A stretch of DNA of 64,000 nucleotides from Escherichia phage 4MG. The translations under genes were made by a program, and so were the position numbers. The stretch lies in the sequence record NC_022968.1; one strand, written 5' to 3'. Below, one piece after another: positions 9,631-48,435 of the stretch; the stretch's first letter is position 1; each line of letters opens with the position of its first letter. Below the pieces are notes generated by a model. The model searched no databases. It had not been told where the DNA came from and worked only from the letters and a program-made list of their open reading frames with translations.

Positions 9631-9987
9631 ATGCACAACAAAGTACGTAATTTCTTACCTAAGAAAACATCTAAGTCTTTTTATGCTACGATACACATTG
9701 CTGGGGATCTGGAATCAGCAAGACCATTGCTCCGTCAATGGACTATGCGTGGTGCTTGTGTACAACTAGTCGGGTGTGATTACATCTACACTGGCGGCTC
9801 TGAACGGGGTATGACAGTTCGCATCATGCAGTATCCTCGTTTTGAACGACCGGAGCACGAGATCCTTGAAATGGCGGTTGAACTTGCTAACTTTTTAGCT
9901 CAGGAACTCTGCCAGATCAGTTTCAGCATTGAAACTCCTTACAATACAACGTATTACCAAGCAGAAGGTTACGAAAAGCGATCATGA
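9631..9987 (+). CDS. hypothetical protein (118 aa)
   Basis: ATG after GGAG SD; frame of track ORF. Confidence 0.4.
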   Translation: MHNKVRNFLPKKTSKSFYATIHIAGDLESARPLLRQWTMRGACVQLVGCDYIYTGGSERGMTVRIMQYPRFERPEHEILEMAVELANFLAQELCQISFSIETPYNTTYYQAEGYEKRS

Positions 9988-10187
9988 AAATTCACAACAT
10001 AACCAAGGACAGGATTCATTTCATAATGGATTCAGGGGCTTACGGTTCAATTTCAAAGGTGGATGCCATGAAGTTTCTGTATGCTTCAAATATTCCTCAG
10101 GCAAAGCTTGACTCCCGTTCAGGAGAGTGTATTATTGACTCTATTACGAATACACAAGAACTGTGGGAGATATATCATGAAATTTAA
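9984..10187 (+). CDS. hypothetical protein (67 aa)
   Basis: Track ORF; coupled start. Confidence 0.4.
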   Translation: MKIHNITKDRIHFIMDSGAYGSISKVDAMKFLYASNIPQAKLDSRSGECIIDSITNTQELWEIYHEI

Positions 10188-37314: not shown

Positions 37315-38568
37315 ATGAAAGTATATCTGGTAGGTGGCGCAGTACGTGACGGTTTGCTTGGTCGTGAAGTTCATGACCGTGACTACGTGGTTGTGGGTGC
37401 AACGCACGAAGAAATGATCAATAAAGGTTTCACCCAGGTTGGCGCTGCTTTTCCAGTATACCTGCATCCTGAAACCAACGAAGAGTATGCTTTGGCCCGT
37501 ACCGAGCGCAAGACGGGCAACGGTCATACAGACTTCGAAACATTCTTCAGCCCGGACGTGACTTTGGTTGAGGATTTGTCTCGTAGAGACCTGACGATCA
37601 ACGCTATGGCTAAAGATTTGGAAACAGGAGAGATCATCGACCCGTTTGGTGGTCAGTATGATATCGAAAAGAAAATTCTGCGTCATACAACGCTGGCATT
37701 CCTTGACGATCCTCTCCGCATCCTGCGTGTGTACCGATTCAAAGCACAACTGGGCAAAGACTGGGAAATCCATGCCGACACTAAAGCTCTGTGCTTTAAT
37801 AACCGTTATGGGCTGTCCCACATCAGCGGTGAGCGTAAGTGGAAAGAGATGGAGAAAGCCCTTGGTTCTGACAACTTCCGGGCATATGCTGAAGCAATGG
37901 CAGAGCTTGGTGAGTTGCCAGAACTGGATGCCCTGCGTGGAGTAGCACAACCACCAGAACACCACCCGGAAGGTGATGCTTTCGTTCATACACTGCTGTG
38001 TTTGGATGTGGCTGACCTTTACGAGGCTAACCCGTATACCAAATTTGCAGTGCTGTGCCATGACTTCGGTAAGGCGATCACTTTCCGTAAATACGGCAAT
38101 CTGATCGGGCATGAAGAGGCAGGTCTGGAACCAGTACGTACATTGTGTGAGCGTATCCGTGTGCCTAACGACTTCCGTGATGTTGCACTGTACGTAACAG
38201 AGCACCACACCCGTGTTCACTGTATCGCCCCTCGTGGCGGCAATAAGGGTGCAAAGCCACGGTCACTGATGAAACTGTTTGAGGCAGCAGGTAATGTGGC
38301 GAGCGCCAAAACAGCGATGAAGGTTGGTTCTTTGGCAGATGCGTGTTTCTGCGATGCAAAAGGTCGTGGTCCAACAAAAATTGCAGAGCCGTATCCGCAG
38401 GGTTATGTTCTGATGGATGCTTTCCGTTGCATGAAGGCTGTTGACACTAAGGTGATCTCTGCTGAGTGCCTTGCAAAAGGTAAGAGCGGTATCGAGATTG
38501 GTGAAGCTATTCGTGTTGCACGTATTGATGCTATCCGTAGCATCACCCAGCGTGAAATTAAGTGGTAG
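37315..38568 (+). CDS. tRNA nucleotidyltransferase (CCA-adding enzyme) with HD domain
   Basis: 417 aa; class II head MKVYLVGGAVRDGLLGREVHDRDYVVVG, RRDLTINAMA, and HD-type CHDFGK motif. Confidence 0.85.
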   Translation: MKVYLVGGAVRDGLLGREVHDRDYVVVGATHEEMINKGFTQVGAAFPVYLHPETNEEYALARTERKTGNGHTDFETFFSPDVTLVEDLSRRDLTINAMAKDLETGEIIDPFGGQYDIEKKILRHTTLAFLDDPLRILRVYRFKAQLGKDWEIHADTKALCFNNRYGLSHISGERKWKEMEKALGSDNFRAYAEAMAELGELPELDALRGVAQPPEHHPEGDAFVHTLLCLDVADLYEANPYTKFAVLCHDFGKAITFRKYGNLIGHEEAGLEPVRTLCERIRVPNDFRDVALYVTEHHTRVHCIAPRGGNKGAKPRSLMKLFEAAGNVASAKTAMKVGSLADACFCDAKGRGPTKIAEPYPQGYVLMDAFRCMKAVDTKVISAECLAKGKSGIEIGEAIRVARIDAIRSITQREIKW

Positions 38569-40776: not shown

Positions 40777-41114
40777 AAGACGTTCGTGGTGAAACCCTGA
40801 ATGTTGGTGATGAGGTTTATATCTACTGGGGGTATAACCAATTGCGCCCAGCCGTGGTAAAGCAGATCACTAAAAACAAGGCCAAAGTGTTTTGTGACGG
40901 GTCACTCTCCAAATGGAAGTCAGGTGAGTGCATGATCAAGGCAGAAGAACCAACAGGCTACTACCCTGACGAGGTGATCATGCTTCTTGAAGAGATTCGT
41001 CGTATTCGGGATGAGGCTCCGATGAATAAAGAGGGTCTTCCAACAAAACAACTGTGCCAGGGGCTTCTGAATTTTTGGGATATGAAGCGCCCAATGAAAC
41101 TGGTTACCTCTTAA
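40773..41114 (+). CDS. hypothetical protein (113 aa)
   Basis: Track ORF. Confidence 0.45.
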   Translation: MKDVRGETLNVGDEVYIYWGYNQLRPAVVKQITKNKAKVFCDGSLSKWKSGECMIKAEEPTGYYPDEVIMLLEEIRRIRDEAPMNKEGLPTKQLCQGLLNFWDMKRPMKLVTS

Positions 41115-41122
41115 GGAGAGAT

Positions 41123-42196
41123 ATGAAAACTTTTGATATGATGCGATGCTACTCAGGTAGCCTCGCGTATGGGACTAATCTCCCAACATCGGATGTTGAT
41201 ATCCGTGGTCTGTTCTGTGCGGAACCTAAGTTCATCCGTACTCCATTCTTCAATATCAAAGAGCAGACGCTCGCTGATGAAGAGGATGGTAAGATCTACG
41301 AACTGACAAACTTCATGAAGTTGTTTGTGGAGATGAACCCCAACATCATCGAACTGATGTTTGTTGATGAAAAAGATATCATTTCCAGTTCAGACGCTTA
41401 CGCATACCTGCGTACAATGGCACCTGAGCTTATGTCAAGTAAGGTTGCATTTAGCTTCTCTGGTTATGCTATGGCACAGCTTAAGCGTATCCGTGGTCAT
41501 GATAAGTGGATCACCAATCCGCAACCGGAGGAAAAGCCAACGCAAAAGGACTTCTTCCGTTTAGTCCACAACTACAGTGAGCACCCTTTCCTTGCTGGTG
41601 TAATTAAGCACGAACGCTTCATGGAGGCCATGACAAATCTGAACGATATGTGCGTCCTCGTTCCTTATGGCAACGACATCTATGGTGTGATGGAGAACTT
41701 CAGTAGCTCAGGTATGTTCAACGCAGATGGTTCTATTCGTCATGTTGACTACCAGCAACTGTCTGATACAGACAAGCGCCGGAAACCTGTGTTCATTGTA
41801 AAGTATCTGGCAGAAGAGCACAAACAGGCAAAGGAGAAGCACCGTAACTACTGGGCCTGGAAGCAGAACCGTAACGAAGTGCGTCATCAGCTTGAAGTGA
41901 ACTTTGGGTACGACACCAAACACGCCATGCATCTTGTACGTCTGATGCGCATGGCTGAAGAGATCCTGACTGATGGAAAGGTTCTGGTGAAGCGTCCTGA
42001 CGCTCAAGAACTCTTAGATATCCGTGGTGGCAAGTGGACTCTTGACGAGCTTCTTAAATGGGCTGATGAAAAAGATCATTACATTCGCGAAGTTCTGTAC
42101 AAAAAGACAGACCTGCCGAAGTACACCGATCTTGAGTTAGCTTCTCGTGTTCTCATGACAGCGCAGGATATCTGCTGGGCGAGTATGGATGTTTGA
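41123..42196 (+). CDS. polymerase-beta superfamily nucleotidyltransferase of unknown specificity
   Basis: About 357 aa; GSLAYGTNLPTSDVDIRGL fits the G[SG]-x(9-13)-D-h-[DE] nucleotidyltransferase signature; helical C-terminal domain. Confidence 0.6.
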   Translation: MKTFDMMRCYSGSLAYGTNLPTSDVDIRGLFCAEPKFIRTPFFNIKEQTLADEEDGKIYELTNFMKLFVEMNPNIIELMFVDEKDIISSSDAYAYLRTMAPELMSSKVAFSFSGYAMAQLKRIRGHDKWITNPQPEEKPTQKDFFRLVHNYSEHPFLAGVIKHERFMEAMTNLNDMCVLVPYGNDIYGVMENFSSSGMFNADGSIRHVDYQQLSDTDKRRKPVFIVKYLAEEHKQAKEKHRNYWAWKQNRNEVRHQLEVNFGYDTKHAMHLVRLMRMAEEILTDGKVLVKRPDAQELLDIRGGKWTLDELLKWADEKDHYIREVLYKKTDLPKYTDLELASRVLMTAQDICWASMDV

Positions 42197-44016: not shown

Positions 44017-44418
44017 TTGTCTATGAGGGACAGAGGAGATTATTACCGTAAGTACGCCGAGCGGAGGCGAATGATAGACCGTGAGCGTCGTTCTACGCCA
44101 GAAGGAAAGGCAAGGCAGTTACAGATCAGGCTTGAGCGTATCGAGGCTGAGAAACGTGCAACCATGCACAGTGAGTGGGACATCTTTGTAAGAGAAGAGG
44201 CCAACCATCTTTGCAACGTGAGGATGTGTGAAACTGGCATCCGTTGGGAGCCAGACCACATGCTGCCCCTCCGGGCAAAGATTGTCTCCGGCCTTAACTG
44301 TGGTGATAATATCCAGGTAATCCCTGCAAAGATGAATCGTAGCAAAAAGAACCACATGATTTATACCAACCGCTTTGAGTGGATTAAGGATTTGGAGACC
44401 GTATGCAGGATGAAATGA
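44017..44418 (+). CDS. HNH endonuclease
   Basis: 133 aa; HLCNVRMCE ... EPDHMLP ... NCGDNIQVIPAKMNRSKKNH HNH-type motifs. Confidence 0.6.
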   Translation: MSMRDRGDYYRKYAERRRMIDRERRSTPEGKARQLQIRLERIEAEKRATMHSEWDIFVREEANHLCNVRMCETGIRWEPDHMLPLRAKIVSGLNCGDNIQVIPAKMNRSKKNHMIYTNRFEWIKDLETVCRMK

Positions 44419-44897: not shown

Positions 44898-44923
44898 CCC
44901 GCCTTGAGCGGGTTTTCTTTTAT
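44896..44923. terminator. bidirectional intrinsic terminator (AACCCGCCTTGAGCGGGTT flanked by A-run and T-run)
   Basis: Hairpin sits between convergent genes 44403-44897 (+) and 44920-45234 (-). Confidence 0.5.
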
Positions 44924-45234
44924 CTGTCTTTTGACATTTTCTCAATAACGAGCCTGTCAGAATCATCCAACAGCATGAGGTGCTCTAAAGGAATGTCAAT
45001 TGTTACTGGCATACCCCTAACGTGACATTCAAACCAGATGTCGTCTGGTGGGTATGGGATACGATCAGGTCCAAACTTTGATCGTTGGATCACAAAGCAT
45101 TCACGACCATTAAGTTGCCCGGTAAGAGGGTTTTTAGGGCTGAATCCGTACAGAAGGCAAATGGTGTCCTCGCGTACACGGTTATCTGGTTCATTGCGGT
45201 CTGGACGACCACCCTTATCTTCGAGTAATTGCAT
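44920..45234 (-). CDS. hypothetical protein (104 aa)
   Basis: Track ORF on minus strand inside the + block. Confidence 0.45.
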   Translation of the reverse strand: MQLLEDKGGRPDRNEPDNRVREDTICLLYGFSPKNPLTGQLNGRECFVIQRSKFGPDRIPYPPDDIWFECHVRGMPVTIDIPLEHLMLLDDSDRLVIEKMSKDR

Positions 45235-45539
45235 TATTTGACTCCAAAGTTGAGTTTGCCATTGAGCTTCTGCACACGATGCGGCAGTATTTCTTCATAC
45301 CACCAATCTTTCTCATGAAGACGGTATGATACGTGGGTCCCATAAGTATCTTCCTGACCGTTCTCACCCTTGATGCGGTAAGTCCTGGTGAAGATGTCAC
45401 GGATTGTTGCTTCAAACTGACCATCGATCAAGACGATCTCATTGTATTTGTACTTATCTTGTTCTAAGATTTCTTGAGACATTATGTTTCTCCTTTGTGT
45501 TGGTAAGGTAAGATTATCAGTGAAATTATTTTTAGTCAA
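45234..45539 (-). CDS. hypothetical protein (101 aa)
   Basis: Track ORF; AAGGAGAAACA SD; coupled to 44920-45234. Confidence 0.45.
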   Translation of the reverse strand: MTKNNFTDNLTLPTQRRNIMSQEILEQDKYKYNEIVLIDGQFEATIRDIFTRTYRIKGENGQEDTYGTHVSYRLHEKDWWYEEILPHRVQKLNGKLNFGVK

Positions 45540-45543
45540 TAGT

Positions 45544-45572
45544 TGACATCATCTTTATTCCTGCCATAATGG
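45544..45572 (+). promoter_or_regulatory. sigma70-like promoter TTGACA-N16-CATAAT
   Basis: Hexamers read directly in divergent gap before 45602 ORF; coordinates +/-2. Confidence 0.45.
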
Positions 45573-45601
45573 TTGAACACAAACCGTTTCAAGGAGAAAC
45601 C

Positions 45602-46750
45602 ATGAAAAGCATTAAACTGAGCATTGCACCAACCTACGTAGCCCATTGGTCATGGTGGGAGGGCGTTCGTGAACTCATTCAGAACGCCATTGACGCTGGT
45701 GACCACGAAGTTGTGTTCATTAAGGACACCATTTCAATTGCATCCTACGGTGGTAAGCTGCCTATCCAATCCCTCCTGATGGGTAAGACCACTAAGGAAG
45801 ATGATGATACCAAGATCGGTAAGTTTGGCGAGGGGATGAAGGTAGGTTTCCTGTGCCTGTTACGTGAAGGTGCAGACATTACCATGTACAACGGTCGAGA
45901 TCTGTGGAAACCAGAGCTTGCGATGGATGATGTGTTCGACGAGAAGGTTCTCTCTGTCAATATCGAGGAGGGGCGTTTCCCTAATCGCTCTGAGGATTGT
46001 GTTACCATCCATATCAAGAATGTTCCTGAACACGCCATACGTGAAATAAAGAACAACTATGCCCCGGAACGTGCTAATCTTGAGGTGGTGTTTGAAGCAG
46101 AGGGCTATGGTAAGGCCTACGCGAAAAAGAACGAGCGTGATTACAAGGATTGCCGTCTATACGTTAATGGCCTGTACGTAACCACCGTTGAGGGTAAGTA
46201 CAAGTTCGATTATGACTTCCCGGCAGACCGATTCACTCTGGATCGTGACCGTAACCAGGCAAGTGAGTTCGAAGTTCGCTGGAATGCAACCCGTCTTCTG
46301 TCACAATCTGACGATGTGCTTATGCTGGCAGACCTGGGTGTTGGTCAGTACGATGACCTTGAGCACTTCGATAGTCAGAACGAGTCAAGCTATTATGTTC
46401 GTGGTTATGAACAGGACACTCTCGAAGAACGGGCGGTATCCATCTTCCGTGAACAAAATGGTTGGAAGGCATTCCCTATCAATGCCAATTGGTCTGATAG
46501 TCGTAAACGATTAGTTACTGAAATGGCGATCAGCCACGGCAAAACTCCGGTGACAGTCAAGAAAGCAGCCTACCAGATGCTGAAACACGAGTTTTCTGTG
46601 CCTGAGGAGATCAACGAAATGGTTGAATTCAAGGCTCTTAGCTACCTTGAGAAATTCCTTGCAAAACACGGTCGAAAACTGTACAGTAAGCCGCGTAAGG
46701 ACCTGGAAAAAACAATCCATATGCTAAAAGTGGCTAAAGGGGAAGCATGA
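45602..46750 (+). CDS. GHKL-type (histidine kinase/MutL/Hsp90-like) ATPase-fold protein
   Basis: About 382 aa; N-box ELIQNAIDAG and G2-box-like GKFGEGMKVGF; the D-x-G-x-G box is not evident. Confidence 0.45.
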   Translation: MKSIKLSIAPTYVAHWSWWEGVRELIQNAIDAGDHEVVFIKDTISIASYGGKLPIQSLLMGKTTKEDDDTKIGKFGEGMKVGFLCLLREGADITMYNGRDLWKPELAMDDVFDEKVLSVNIEEGRFPNRSEDCVTIHIKNVPEHAIREIKNNYAPERANLEVVFEAEGYGKAYAKKNERDYKDCRLYVNGLYVTTVEGKYKFDYDFPADRFTLDRDRNQASEFEVRWNATRLLSQSDDVLMLADLGVGQYDDLEHFDSQNESSYYVRGYEQDTLEERAVSIFREQNGWKAFPINANWSDSRKRLVTEMAISHGKTPVTVKKAAYQMLKHEFSVPEEINEMVEFKALSYLEKFLAKHGRKLYSKPRKDLEKTIHMLKVAKGEA

Positions 46751-46908
46751 CATACTCGATCTACGGCAGAATGTCAAAAGACTCGGCCTCCCGCGAGGGG
46801 GCCTGGTACTGTTTGAAAACTAAGGTTTCTGTTGACAATGTTCAGCAGGTTATGGAATACTACGCTAAGACATGGCGATATGTGGAGAAAAGAAATGAAA
46901 TTGAGTGA
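46747..46908 (+). CDS. hypothetical small protein (53 aa)
   Basis: Not in track; ATGA overlap with upstream stop. Confidence 0.3.
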   Translation: MTYSIYGRMSKDSASREGAWYCLKTKVSVDNVQQVMEYYAKTWRYVEKRNEIE

Positions 46909-47781: not shown

Positions 47782-48435
47782 ATGTTAGAAGCGATGTTAA
47801 CAGCGGGTAAGAGTGCCCCAGTTGTGGGTAATAAGACTCTTCTTCTGCTACAGGCAGATAAAGGCGGTGTCGATCAGGCAAAAAGTGACAGGGTGTTCTC
47901 TAAAGTGGCGACAGTTAGTACCACAACCACAGCAAAGTTCAACAACAAGCAGTTTGATTGCCTGTCTGCGGCAAGTTATTTTGAAATAATGGCGGCAAAC
48001 AAAACAGACCTTGTTTTTGGGTCAACAGATGACTACACTATCGAATTCTGGTGTAAGAACTCCAGTGTTGCATCCTCGTGGTGGTTGTATTTTGGAACCG
48101 GAACACAAAGTTGCTTGAAGGTATATCAGAGCGTTGTCTACTTACAGGATCAACTGAGGTATCTAAGTTTTAACTCAAACTTCTGGCCTTTATCAACATG
48201 GGCGCATATAGCAATTGTTAACAAGGACGGTATAACAAAGCTTTATATCAACGGGTCAACCGCTGTGACTGGGGCTGGTTTTGCTTCTGGGGGTTGGAGT
48301 CTCCCATCTGTCTATGCGCGAATTGGGTATGGTGAGGCTACAGCGTTTGCATACATGGACCAAATCAGGATCAGTAAGGTTGCCAGGTATAGCGGTAACT
48401 TCTCTGTTCCAACAGCACCCTTTATTCTTGATTAA
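47782..48435 (+). CDS. LamG/concanavalin-like beta-sandwich protein (paralogue of 42799-43449)
   Basis: 217 aa; beta-rich; AGGAGGAAATA SD. Confidence 0.35.
   Translation: MLEAMLTAGKSAPVVGNKTLLLLQADKGGVDQAKSDRVFSKVATVSTTTTAKFNNKQFDCLSAASYFEIMAANKTDLVFGSTDDYTIEFWCKNSSVASSWWLYFGTGTQSCLKVYQSVVYLQDQLRYLSFNSNFWPLSTWAHIAIVNKDGITKLYINGSTAVTGAGFASGGWSLPSVYARIGYGEATAFAYMDQIRISKVARYSGNFSVPTAPFILD

Follow-up and report, generated by a model that had tools for sequence, protein, structure and literature searches.

The GHKL gene, its promoter and its neighbours

The 64,000-nucleotide stretch of Escherichia phage 4MG analysed here (sequence record NC_022968.1; hereafter the window) contains, at 45602..46750 on the plus strand, a coding sequence for a protein of 382 amino acids (aa). 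Based on the open reading frame (ORF), the family profile and the predicted structure, the protein is described here as a stand-alone sacsin-like GHKL protein of phrog_6077. An earlier note, made from the sequence alone, had proposed a GHKL-type ATPase-like protein with incomplete Bergerat motifs at this position, either a decoy or inhibitor of host GHKL machines, or a DNA- or chromatin-manipulating ATPase. The structural part of this proposal is supported by a predicted Bergerat fold, by an invariant N-box and G2 box, and by a G1 aspartate that is missing throughout the family. The stretch comes from a phage of the Vequintavirinae; among deposited genomes it is closest to Enterobacter phage EC152, of the genus Seunavirus (nucleotide identity of 82% across the region), and to Cronobacter phage GAP31.

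The start codon is preceded by a Shine-Dalgarno sequence, AAGGAG (45591..45596, plus strand), read from the sequence six bases before the ATG at 45602. An alternative in-frame ATG at 45569 falls within the -10 hexamer of the upstream promoter, and the homologues all begin with MK.IKLS; position 45602 is therefore regarded as the true start. The promoter (45543..45570, plus strand) is of the sigma-70 type and consists of TTGACA (45543-45548) and, with a spacing of 16 nucleotides, TGcCATAAT (45562-45570). It is strong and near-consensus, matching at 11 of 12 positions and carrying an extended -10 TG, and lies 31 bases upstream of the start codon of the GHKL gene. The -35 boxes of this and a divergent promoter stand back to back (AGTCAA-TAG-TTGACA, 45534-45548).

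Upstream lie two short genes on the minus strand, identified as ORFs with PHROG matches: one of 82 aa at 45234..45482 (phrog_16965) and one of 104 aa at 44920..45234 (phrog_13562), both families of unknown function. The earlier note had reported this divergent pair as well as the gene's own promoter, and both hold. Downstream, on the plus strand, a 53-aa gene (46747..46908; phrog_2381, function unknown) has an ATG that overlaps the stop codon of the GHKL gene (ATGA), an arrangement that suggests possible translational coupling.

The GHKL gene is under strong purifying selection. The ratio of nonsynonymous to synonymous substitution rates (dN/dS) is ~0.06 in comparison with its EC152 counterpart, with synonymous sites close to saturation. 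The intergenic promoter region (45483-45601) is 98-100% identical to that of EC152, whereas the gene body is only 55-85% identical. Conserved flanks around a diverged gene body look like mosaic allele exchange with conserved junctions, or like strong regulatory constraint. A second patch of 100% identity to EC152 follows the gene, at 46770-46830. Further downstream EC152 has an extra insertion of ~250 bp, holding a small ORF (L001 9891-10148; insertion L001 ~9897-10145), between the 53-aa gene and an 82-aa gene; it is absent here, at 46893. The GHKL gene has acquired or kept its own promoter, and encodes a real, constrained and early-expressed GHKL-fold protein.

Fold and active-site motifs

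The 382-aa protein belongs to phrog_6077, of unknown function, over its full length (E 5e-138). Matches to curated models were found for Pfam SACS (PF25794; E 2.5e-4, 21.4 bits against a cut-off of 32.8), Pfam HATPase_c_3 (E 0.013, 15.9 bits against 25) and NCBIfam NF047352, sacsin N-terminal ATP-binding-like (E 1.6e-6, 28.5 bits against 50), each of them below threshold. Such matches recur in the family, with HATPase_c_3 in 16 of 36 members and SACS in 13 of 36. A profile made from 36 homologues was searched against 1.84 billion representatives (clusters at 50% identity) and matched 5,723 proteins with E <= 1e-3, of which 1,485 reached E <= 1e-30. Among the best matches are proteins of ~1,100 aa with three tandem modules (E 1e-68 to 1e-81), which exceed the Pfam thresholds of HATPase_c_3 and HATPase_c (up to 86.5 bits against 25). 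The 382-aa protein is thus linked to HATPase_c_3 above threshold only transitively, because it is these three-repeat relatives, found by the family profile, that pass.

The structure prediction proposed in the earlier note as a check came out in its favour. The AlphaFold2 model, with a predicted local distance difference test score (pLDDT) of 85 and a predicted template modelling score (pTM) of 0.74, shows the Bergerat alpha/beta sandwich with an ATP lid. With this model, Foldseek matched Hsp90, MORC2, MORC3 and topo VI-B in the PDB with E values between 1e-6 and 1e-4; sacsin SR1 followed at 0.02. In both structure searches the top matches are GHKL ATPases only, with the ATPase regions of topoisomerase II/ParE and MutL also among them. 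Identity is 11-16% to the GHL/MORC-type proteins and 11-15% to the host-type GHKL structures. At the sequence level, a PDB search with the protein and with the family profile gave sacsin alone, at E ~1, which by itself is uninformative. PF25856 (MPN635_N), precomputed for some homologues, was faint, and scanning locally did not recover it at any E up to 10; it was dropped.

The recurring weak family matches, the profile link to the three-repeat proteins and the structure matches together make the GHKL assignment secure. The 382-aa protein is a divergent, sacsin-like member of the GHKL superfamily and a remote homologue of the GHL-type ATPases. It should not be filed as Hsp90, MutL, GyrB, MORC, histidine kinase, rIIA or TmtA; a divergent sacsin-like entry is preferred because G1 and motif IV, out of four classical motifs, are lacking and all curated hidden Markov model (HMM) thresholds are missed. 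The fold assignment is not new, since a few depositors already label relatives, such as Vibrio phage homologues, as 'histidine kinase-like ATPase' or 'HATPase' (annotation labels only). We found no published function for any phage member or for phrog_6077 in the literature.

Three domains can be delineated in the model, all on the plus strand. The predicted N-terminal nucleotide-binding domain covers residues ~1-140. It is followed by a second alpha/beta domain (46022..46300, residues ~141-233, boundaries approximate) that is middle- or transducer-like: the structure alignments reach 200-210 residues on two-domain ATPase fragments, which indicates that this domain probably corresponds, at least partly, to a transducer or middle domain. 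In the model, the family-specific C-terminal domain (46301..46747, residues ~234-382) combines a small alpha/beta unit with a basic helical hairpin. The protein as a whole is acidic, with a net charge of ~-9. Compared with EC152, the most diverged part of the gene is the first half of the second domain (45900-46150, residues ~100-185; 55-62% nucleotide identity), and the proportion of nonsynonymous differences (pN) rises from 0.088 in the N-terminal domain to 0.175 over residues 101-232.

For the active site, 261 modules from 230 proteins were aligned to an HMM of the N-terminal 235 residues. The motifs listed in the earlier note, ELIQNAIDAG (residues 24-33) and GKFGEGMKVGF (residues 73-83) in a 382-aa protein at 45602-46750 with no clear DxGxG, were all borne out. 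The N-box, or motif I, E24-L-I-Q27-N28-A-I-D31 (45671..45694, plus strand), has the E-x3-N-x2-D pattern and is nearly universal in the alignment (E24 in 245/246 modules, N28 in 246/246, D31 in 247/247). E24 is the putative catalytic general base and N28 the putative Mg ligand. The short ATP-lid region with the G2 box, L59-x-G61-x3-K65...I72-G73-K-F-G76-E77-G78-M-K80 (45776..45841, plus strand), can likewise be read from the sequence. The G-x-x-G-x-G pattern of the G2 box is kept in at least 241 of 246 modules, and G61, K65, G73, G76, E77, G78 and K80 are each kept in at least 238 of 246. The model has a pLDDT of 54-65 over residues 61-80, and below 50 for residues 67-73, consistent with the lid region being a flexible loop. 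R88 and Y204 are essentially invariant in the aligned modules. In the N-terminal segment, Y12 and W16 do not vary, which is at most suggestive with regard to nucleotide-dependent N-terminal dimerisation.

A further invariant element is found in the second domain, where the loop L213-D214-R215-D216-R217 (46238..46252, plus strand) leads from a strand to a long helix in the model. R215-D216-R217 is conserved in 236-237 of 237 modules, multi-repeat relatives included. By analogy to Hsp90 Arg380 and sacsin Arg474 (PMC9880540), this R-D-R loop may act as a sensor of the gamma-phosphate or as a catalytic arginine loop.

The picture is different for the two motifs that normally contact the base. The Asp of DxGxG contacts adenine N6, and the Thr of motif IV contacts adenine through water. 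At the position of DxGxG (motif II, or G1) the 382-aa protein has the strand and turn I-S-I-A-S48-Y-G-G-K-L (45731..45760, plus strand), with Ser in place of the Asp. Across the 261 modules this position is S in 125, N in 72, T in 21 and D in 27, and all but one of the cases with D are in multi-repeat relatives. The G1 turn itself is weakly conserved (G50 57%, G51 44%). Motif IV, G-T, is also lacking; C133-V134 aligns there in the 382-aa protein, although this depends on the alignment. The position is V or L in single-module proteins, whereas many repeat modules have the canonical GT.

The loss of the G1 Asp is coupled to the residue preceding the Mg-binding Asn. Gln is found at position 27 in 215 modules, every one from single-module proteins, and 214 of these 215 domains lack the G1 Asp. 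Conversely, 26 of 27 repeat modules have the G1 Asp, then combined with Ala, Ser or Thr at position 27 and never with Gln. The single-module proteins, which include the 382-aa protein and all phage members examined, thus differ systematically from the repeat proteins: both adenine-contacting residues are gone and Gln stands beside the Mg-binding Asn, while both sets retain the apparatus for catalysis and phosphate binding. Judged from this pattern, the missing G1 Asp is a family hallmark and not decay.

Judged by sequence, the closest signature of the phage protein is the sacsin-type Hsp90-like domain. Both have the N-box ELIQNAxDA (ELIQNAEDA in sacsin) with Gln before the Mg-binding Asn, and both lack the G1 Asp, which is replaced by Asn in sacsin and by Ser, Asn or Thr in the phage family. 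In the 382-aa protein this combination is seen as Q27-N28 with S48. In all three repeats of sacsin, Asn160, Asn1526 and Asn2592 replace Asp79 of Hsp90 (PMC9880540). Furthermore, both have a short lid ending in IGxFGxG and a subsequent beta-rich domain with a conserved arginine loop, and some relatives of the phage protein have three tandem modules, as sacsin does. Modelling of sacsin led to the proposal that a conserved Arg on a strand-loop-helix of the following domain is catalytic, like Hsp90 Arg380 (PMC9880540); the phage R-D-R loop occupies an analogous chain position.

These observations bear on the possibility that the protein is a pseudo-ATPase, in which the GHKL fold would serve as a scaffold or ligand-binding module for stoichiometric partner binding, with neither ATP binding nor hydrolysis. 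Throughout the single-module family neither the adenine-contacting Asp (S48 here) nor the motif-IV Thr (V134) is retained, conservation of the G1 turn is low, and ATP binding by the Hsp90-like domains of sacsin has itself been called debatable (PMC9880540). However, modules that are only ~25% identical invariably have the general-base Glu and the Mg-binding Asn, the Lys and glycines of the lid, and R-D-R, which is hard to explain without phosphate and Mg chemistry, and the strict pairing of Q27 with a residue other than Asp resembles a compensated pocket more than a decayed one. We consider a pseudo-ATPase unlikely, but worth keeping in view.

The other GHL- and MORC-type proteins (GyrB/ParE/topo II, MutL/MLH1, MORC2/3, SMCHD1 and Hsp90) differ from the phage protein, which is without DxGxG and without GT. 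It also lacks a Toprim domain or cleavage partner, the C-terminal endonuclease or dimerisation domain of MutL, and a CW or coiled-coil insert. A sensor histidine kinase was rejected: there is no HisKA or related Pfam match, and the GHKL domain begins at residue 1. The presence of the GHL-type catalytic Glu argues for a hydrolase and not a kinase. A resemblance to T4 rIIA was also considered. Like the 382-aa protein, rIIA is made early by its phage and has an N-terminal region with a weak likeness to HATPase_c_3, and the lid/G2 segment SSKxxxxxFIGGFGLGSK of rIIA resembles TTKxxxxxKIGKFGEGMK of the 382-aa protein. However, rIIA is 725 aa long with unrelated remaining sequence, only the lid/G2 segment aligns, and the hhalign profile-profile probability is 1.1%; homology was rejected. 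The label 'RIIA lysis inhibitor' on a 51%-identical homologue (Klebsiella phage phi1_175008) is therefore not supported as orthology, nor is 'chaperon protein htpG' on another homologue.

Relatives and their genomic context

The family was found by tblastn in 112 of 50,697 phage records. Full-length copies occur in the Vequintavirinae, and the N-terminal 230-260 residues alone are matched in phages of Vibrio, Pseudomonas (PaMx11, Ab18-like), Edwardsiella (KF-1), Pseudoalteromonas, Xanthomonas and Shewanella, and in one Streptococcus phage. A scan of cellular genomes gave at least five confirmed loci, all in metagenome-assembled genomes or draft assemblies. The family appears to be predominantly viral.

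In at least eight phage lineages the gene is located inside or beside a DNA-replication module. In Escherichia phage A7_1 and Pectobacterium phage PcCB7V the homologue lies between the primase/helicase and the DNA polymerase, and in Pseudomonas phage PaMx11 it is downstream of the primase, adjoining DNA ligase and near an NTP hydrolase and an exonuclease. In Pseudoalteromonas phage PH1 it is located between a polymerase/primase and exoVIII with a Dda-like helicase, and in Vibrio phage VPMS1 it is flanked to one side by primase, Dda helicase and DenV and to the other by a DUF2815 DNA-binding protein with Pol I. In a metagenomic phage contig a family-A DNA polymerase gene lies ~1.5 kb upstream of it, and a SNF2-like helicase and DNA ligase are found further along. 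Homologues are also found near helicase genes in Edwardsiella phage KF-1 and Vibrio phage 1.175.O, and 1.6 kb upstream of DNA ligase in Serratia phage Kashira. In an all-against-all BLASTP of the ORFs within 5 kb at 11 loci, the GHKL gene alone was common to all, and a Dda-like helicase and a primase/polymerase were common to three small phages.

This distribution also bears on the proposal that the protein counters host defence, or acts as a decoy, by mimicry or titration, for host GHKL machinery (gyrase, MutL, HtpG) or for a GHKL defence protein (Tiamat TmtA, MORC-like). The early promoter would be in keeping with such a role, as would the amino acid identity to EC152, which is 80% for the GHKL protein but 90-96% for most flanking genes. 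Some unrelated neighbouring genes, however, are equally diverged. PADLOC gave a weak match to the N-terminus of TmtA (16.9 bits, E 2e-4 over ~60 residues; model of 1,063-1,552 positions), but this covers residues 21-80 only, the generic N-box-G2 segment, and was rejected. The structural matches to host-type GHKL proteins share the low identity given above, dN/dS is low, and the homologues lie in replication modules. Furthermore, the catalytic Glu and Mg-binding Asn, invariant in ~245 diverged modules, would be needless in a passive mimic, and the family spans very different hosts, namely phages of Gammaproteobacteria and Firmicutes, and also algae. We found no positive evidence for the decoy proposed in the earlier note, and regard such a role as highly improbable.

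Several relatives carry additional elements. The three-repeat proteins (~1,100 aa, with a module of ~320 aa; P0108, P0110, P0111, P0114, P0120, P0124 and P0125, also P0181 and P0203, and L017 6032-9379) carry canonical DxGxG motifs and, in many modules, canonical GT motifs, and end in a conserved metallopeptidase-like tail, hhHExxHxxxGxxD...EF. One three-repeat gene, on an apparently cellular contig, has a DUF2201 gene as its neighbour, and genes for OTCase and SepF are close by. In total, a C-terminal HExxH metallopeptidase-like tail is present in 16 of 229 relatives, including all sampled non-truncated three-repeat proteins, with weak Pfam support (DUF6782, E 0.057; M48, E 0.17 for P0070). 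In a single-module subgroup of 406-544 aa (P0070, P0170, P0172, P0179, P0202, P0209, P0211, P0213, P0214 and P0218) the HExxH motif 'TL.VLVHEYAH..G.DG', seen at motif level only, replaces the helical tail. Haptophyte and marine-eukaryote proteins (P0072-P0082, for example a 614-aa protein of Chrysochromulina tobinii) share the N-terminal module. These algal relatives keep the Q-N box, N at the G1 position and the LDRDR loop, and one ends in a C3HC4 RING finger. The sharing with algae suggests virus-to-eukaryote transfer or an ancient common origin.

A role as an Hsp90/sacsin-like chaperone, acting on phage or host proteins (for example in the replisome or in virion assembly) and not on DNA, can be considered on this basis. 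A chaperone action has been reported for sacsin (PMC3710099), the closest signature, the HExxH tails and the RING domain occur among the relatives, the protein is acidic, and one GenBank annotator chose the name htpG for a homologue. The chaperone role overlaps with the replication role favoured below if the clients are replisome proteins; taken as a separate explanation, it seems to us rather doubtful.

Other genes of the window were noted in passing. Upstream of the small early genes around the GHKL gene lie a CCA tRNA nucleotidyltransferase (37315-38568, by synteny with EC152) and an RlaP-type nucleotidyltransferase (41054-42196; RNA repair pathway, DNA polymerase beta family; Pfam E 1.9e-13), which suggest a tRNA or RNA repair module. 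Genes for tRNA-Lys(CTT) and tRNA-Met(CAT) are found on the minus strand at 2032-2107 and 2802-2878. Just upstream of the region, a 133-aa ORF (44017-44418) matches the PHROG endonuclease VII family (phrog_1035, E 5.6e-19) and is possibly a homing or HNH-type nuclease. The region is bracketed by two ORFs of ~216 aa with an N-terminal similarity apparent by eye only: 42799-43449 matches phrog_6011 ('virion structural protein') and has no Pfam match, and 47782-48435 is Laminin_G_3/concanavalin-like (E 4.6e-8) and resembles segments of giant virion or baseplate proteins.

Candidate mechanism and significance

The reading that we favour, and for which we see the chances as evenly balanced, is that the 382-aa protein, a stand-alone early GHKL member, works as a conformational switch of the Hsp90/sacsin/MutL/MORC type, driven by nucleotide and serving phage replication. 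Starting from the predicted fold, conservation, promoter, context and purifying selection computed here, we infer nucleotide binding, hydrolysis, dimerisation and a client. In this mechanism N28, K65, the G73-G78 lid, K80 and R215/R217 would bind a nucleoside triphosphate (NTP) together with Mg2+, and E24, as general base, would catalyse its hydrolysis. The cycle would open and close a clamp or remodel a client, as in other GHL-type ATPases. With S48, Q27 and V134 in the pocket, base recognition would be altered or relaxed and the site would not be dead. The client is most likely the phage replication or recombination machinery, or DNA, because the gene is embedded in the replication modules of other phage lineages.

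Several observations weigh against this switch in replication. The 382-aa protein stays under every curated Pfam and NCBIfam threshold, and the usual adenine contacts, the G1 Asp and the motif-IV Thr, are both absent from it. In Hsp90 and GyrB an Asp-to-Asn change at G1 abolishes ATP binding, and the doubt raised about sacsin applies to the same pocket. In the window the gene sits among small early genes, outside any replication module, and no conserved partner gene was found within 5 kb at the 11 loci compared. The C-terminal 150 residues gave no informative structural match, no DNA-binding fold match and no functional clue, and the HExxH or RING fusions of the relatives point to protein rather than DNA clients.

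The same points divide the earlier proposal of a DNA-manipulating ATPase. It is compatible with the recurrent replication-module context, but not favoured by a C-terminal domain without a match to a DNA-binding fold, by the acidity of the protein or by the fusion of relatives to protein-directed elements (HExxH motif or RING domain).

A bolder extension of the replication switch is that the single-module Gln27/non-Asp proteins form a phage-wide class of Hsp90/sacsin-type NTPases with re-engineered base recognition (for another nucleotide, or with relaxed specificity), which would remodel replisome or recombination complexes as a 'replication chaperone'. We put this forward as a speculation that is more probably wrong than right by some distance. 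If true, the phage protein would be a small and tractable model of the disputed sacsin nucleotide pocket.

The GHKL gene of phage 4MG is neither a decayed remnant nor a demonstrated decoy of a host machine. Its fold is ordinary; it is the size of the family, the placement in replication modules and the active-site switch shared with sacsin that make it worth an experiment. An intact catalytic and phosphate-binding apparatus combined with a replaced adenine-recognition pair is the very oddity behind the controversy on ATP binding by sacsin, the human ARSACS ataxia protein, and a soluble phage protein of 382 aa is a convenient model for such a pocket. Furthermore, the family is large, spread across unrelated phage lineages and without a published function, so that any assay result would annotate thousands of genes.

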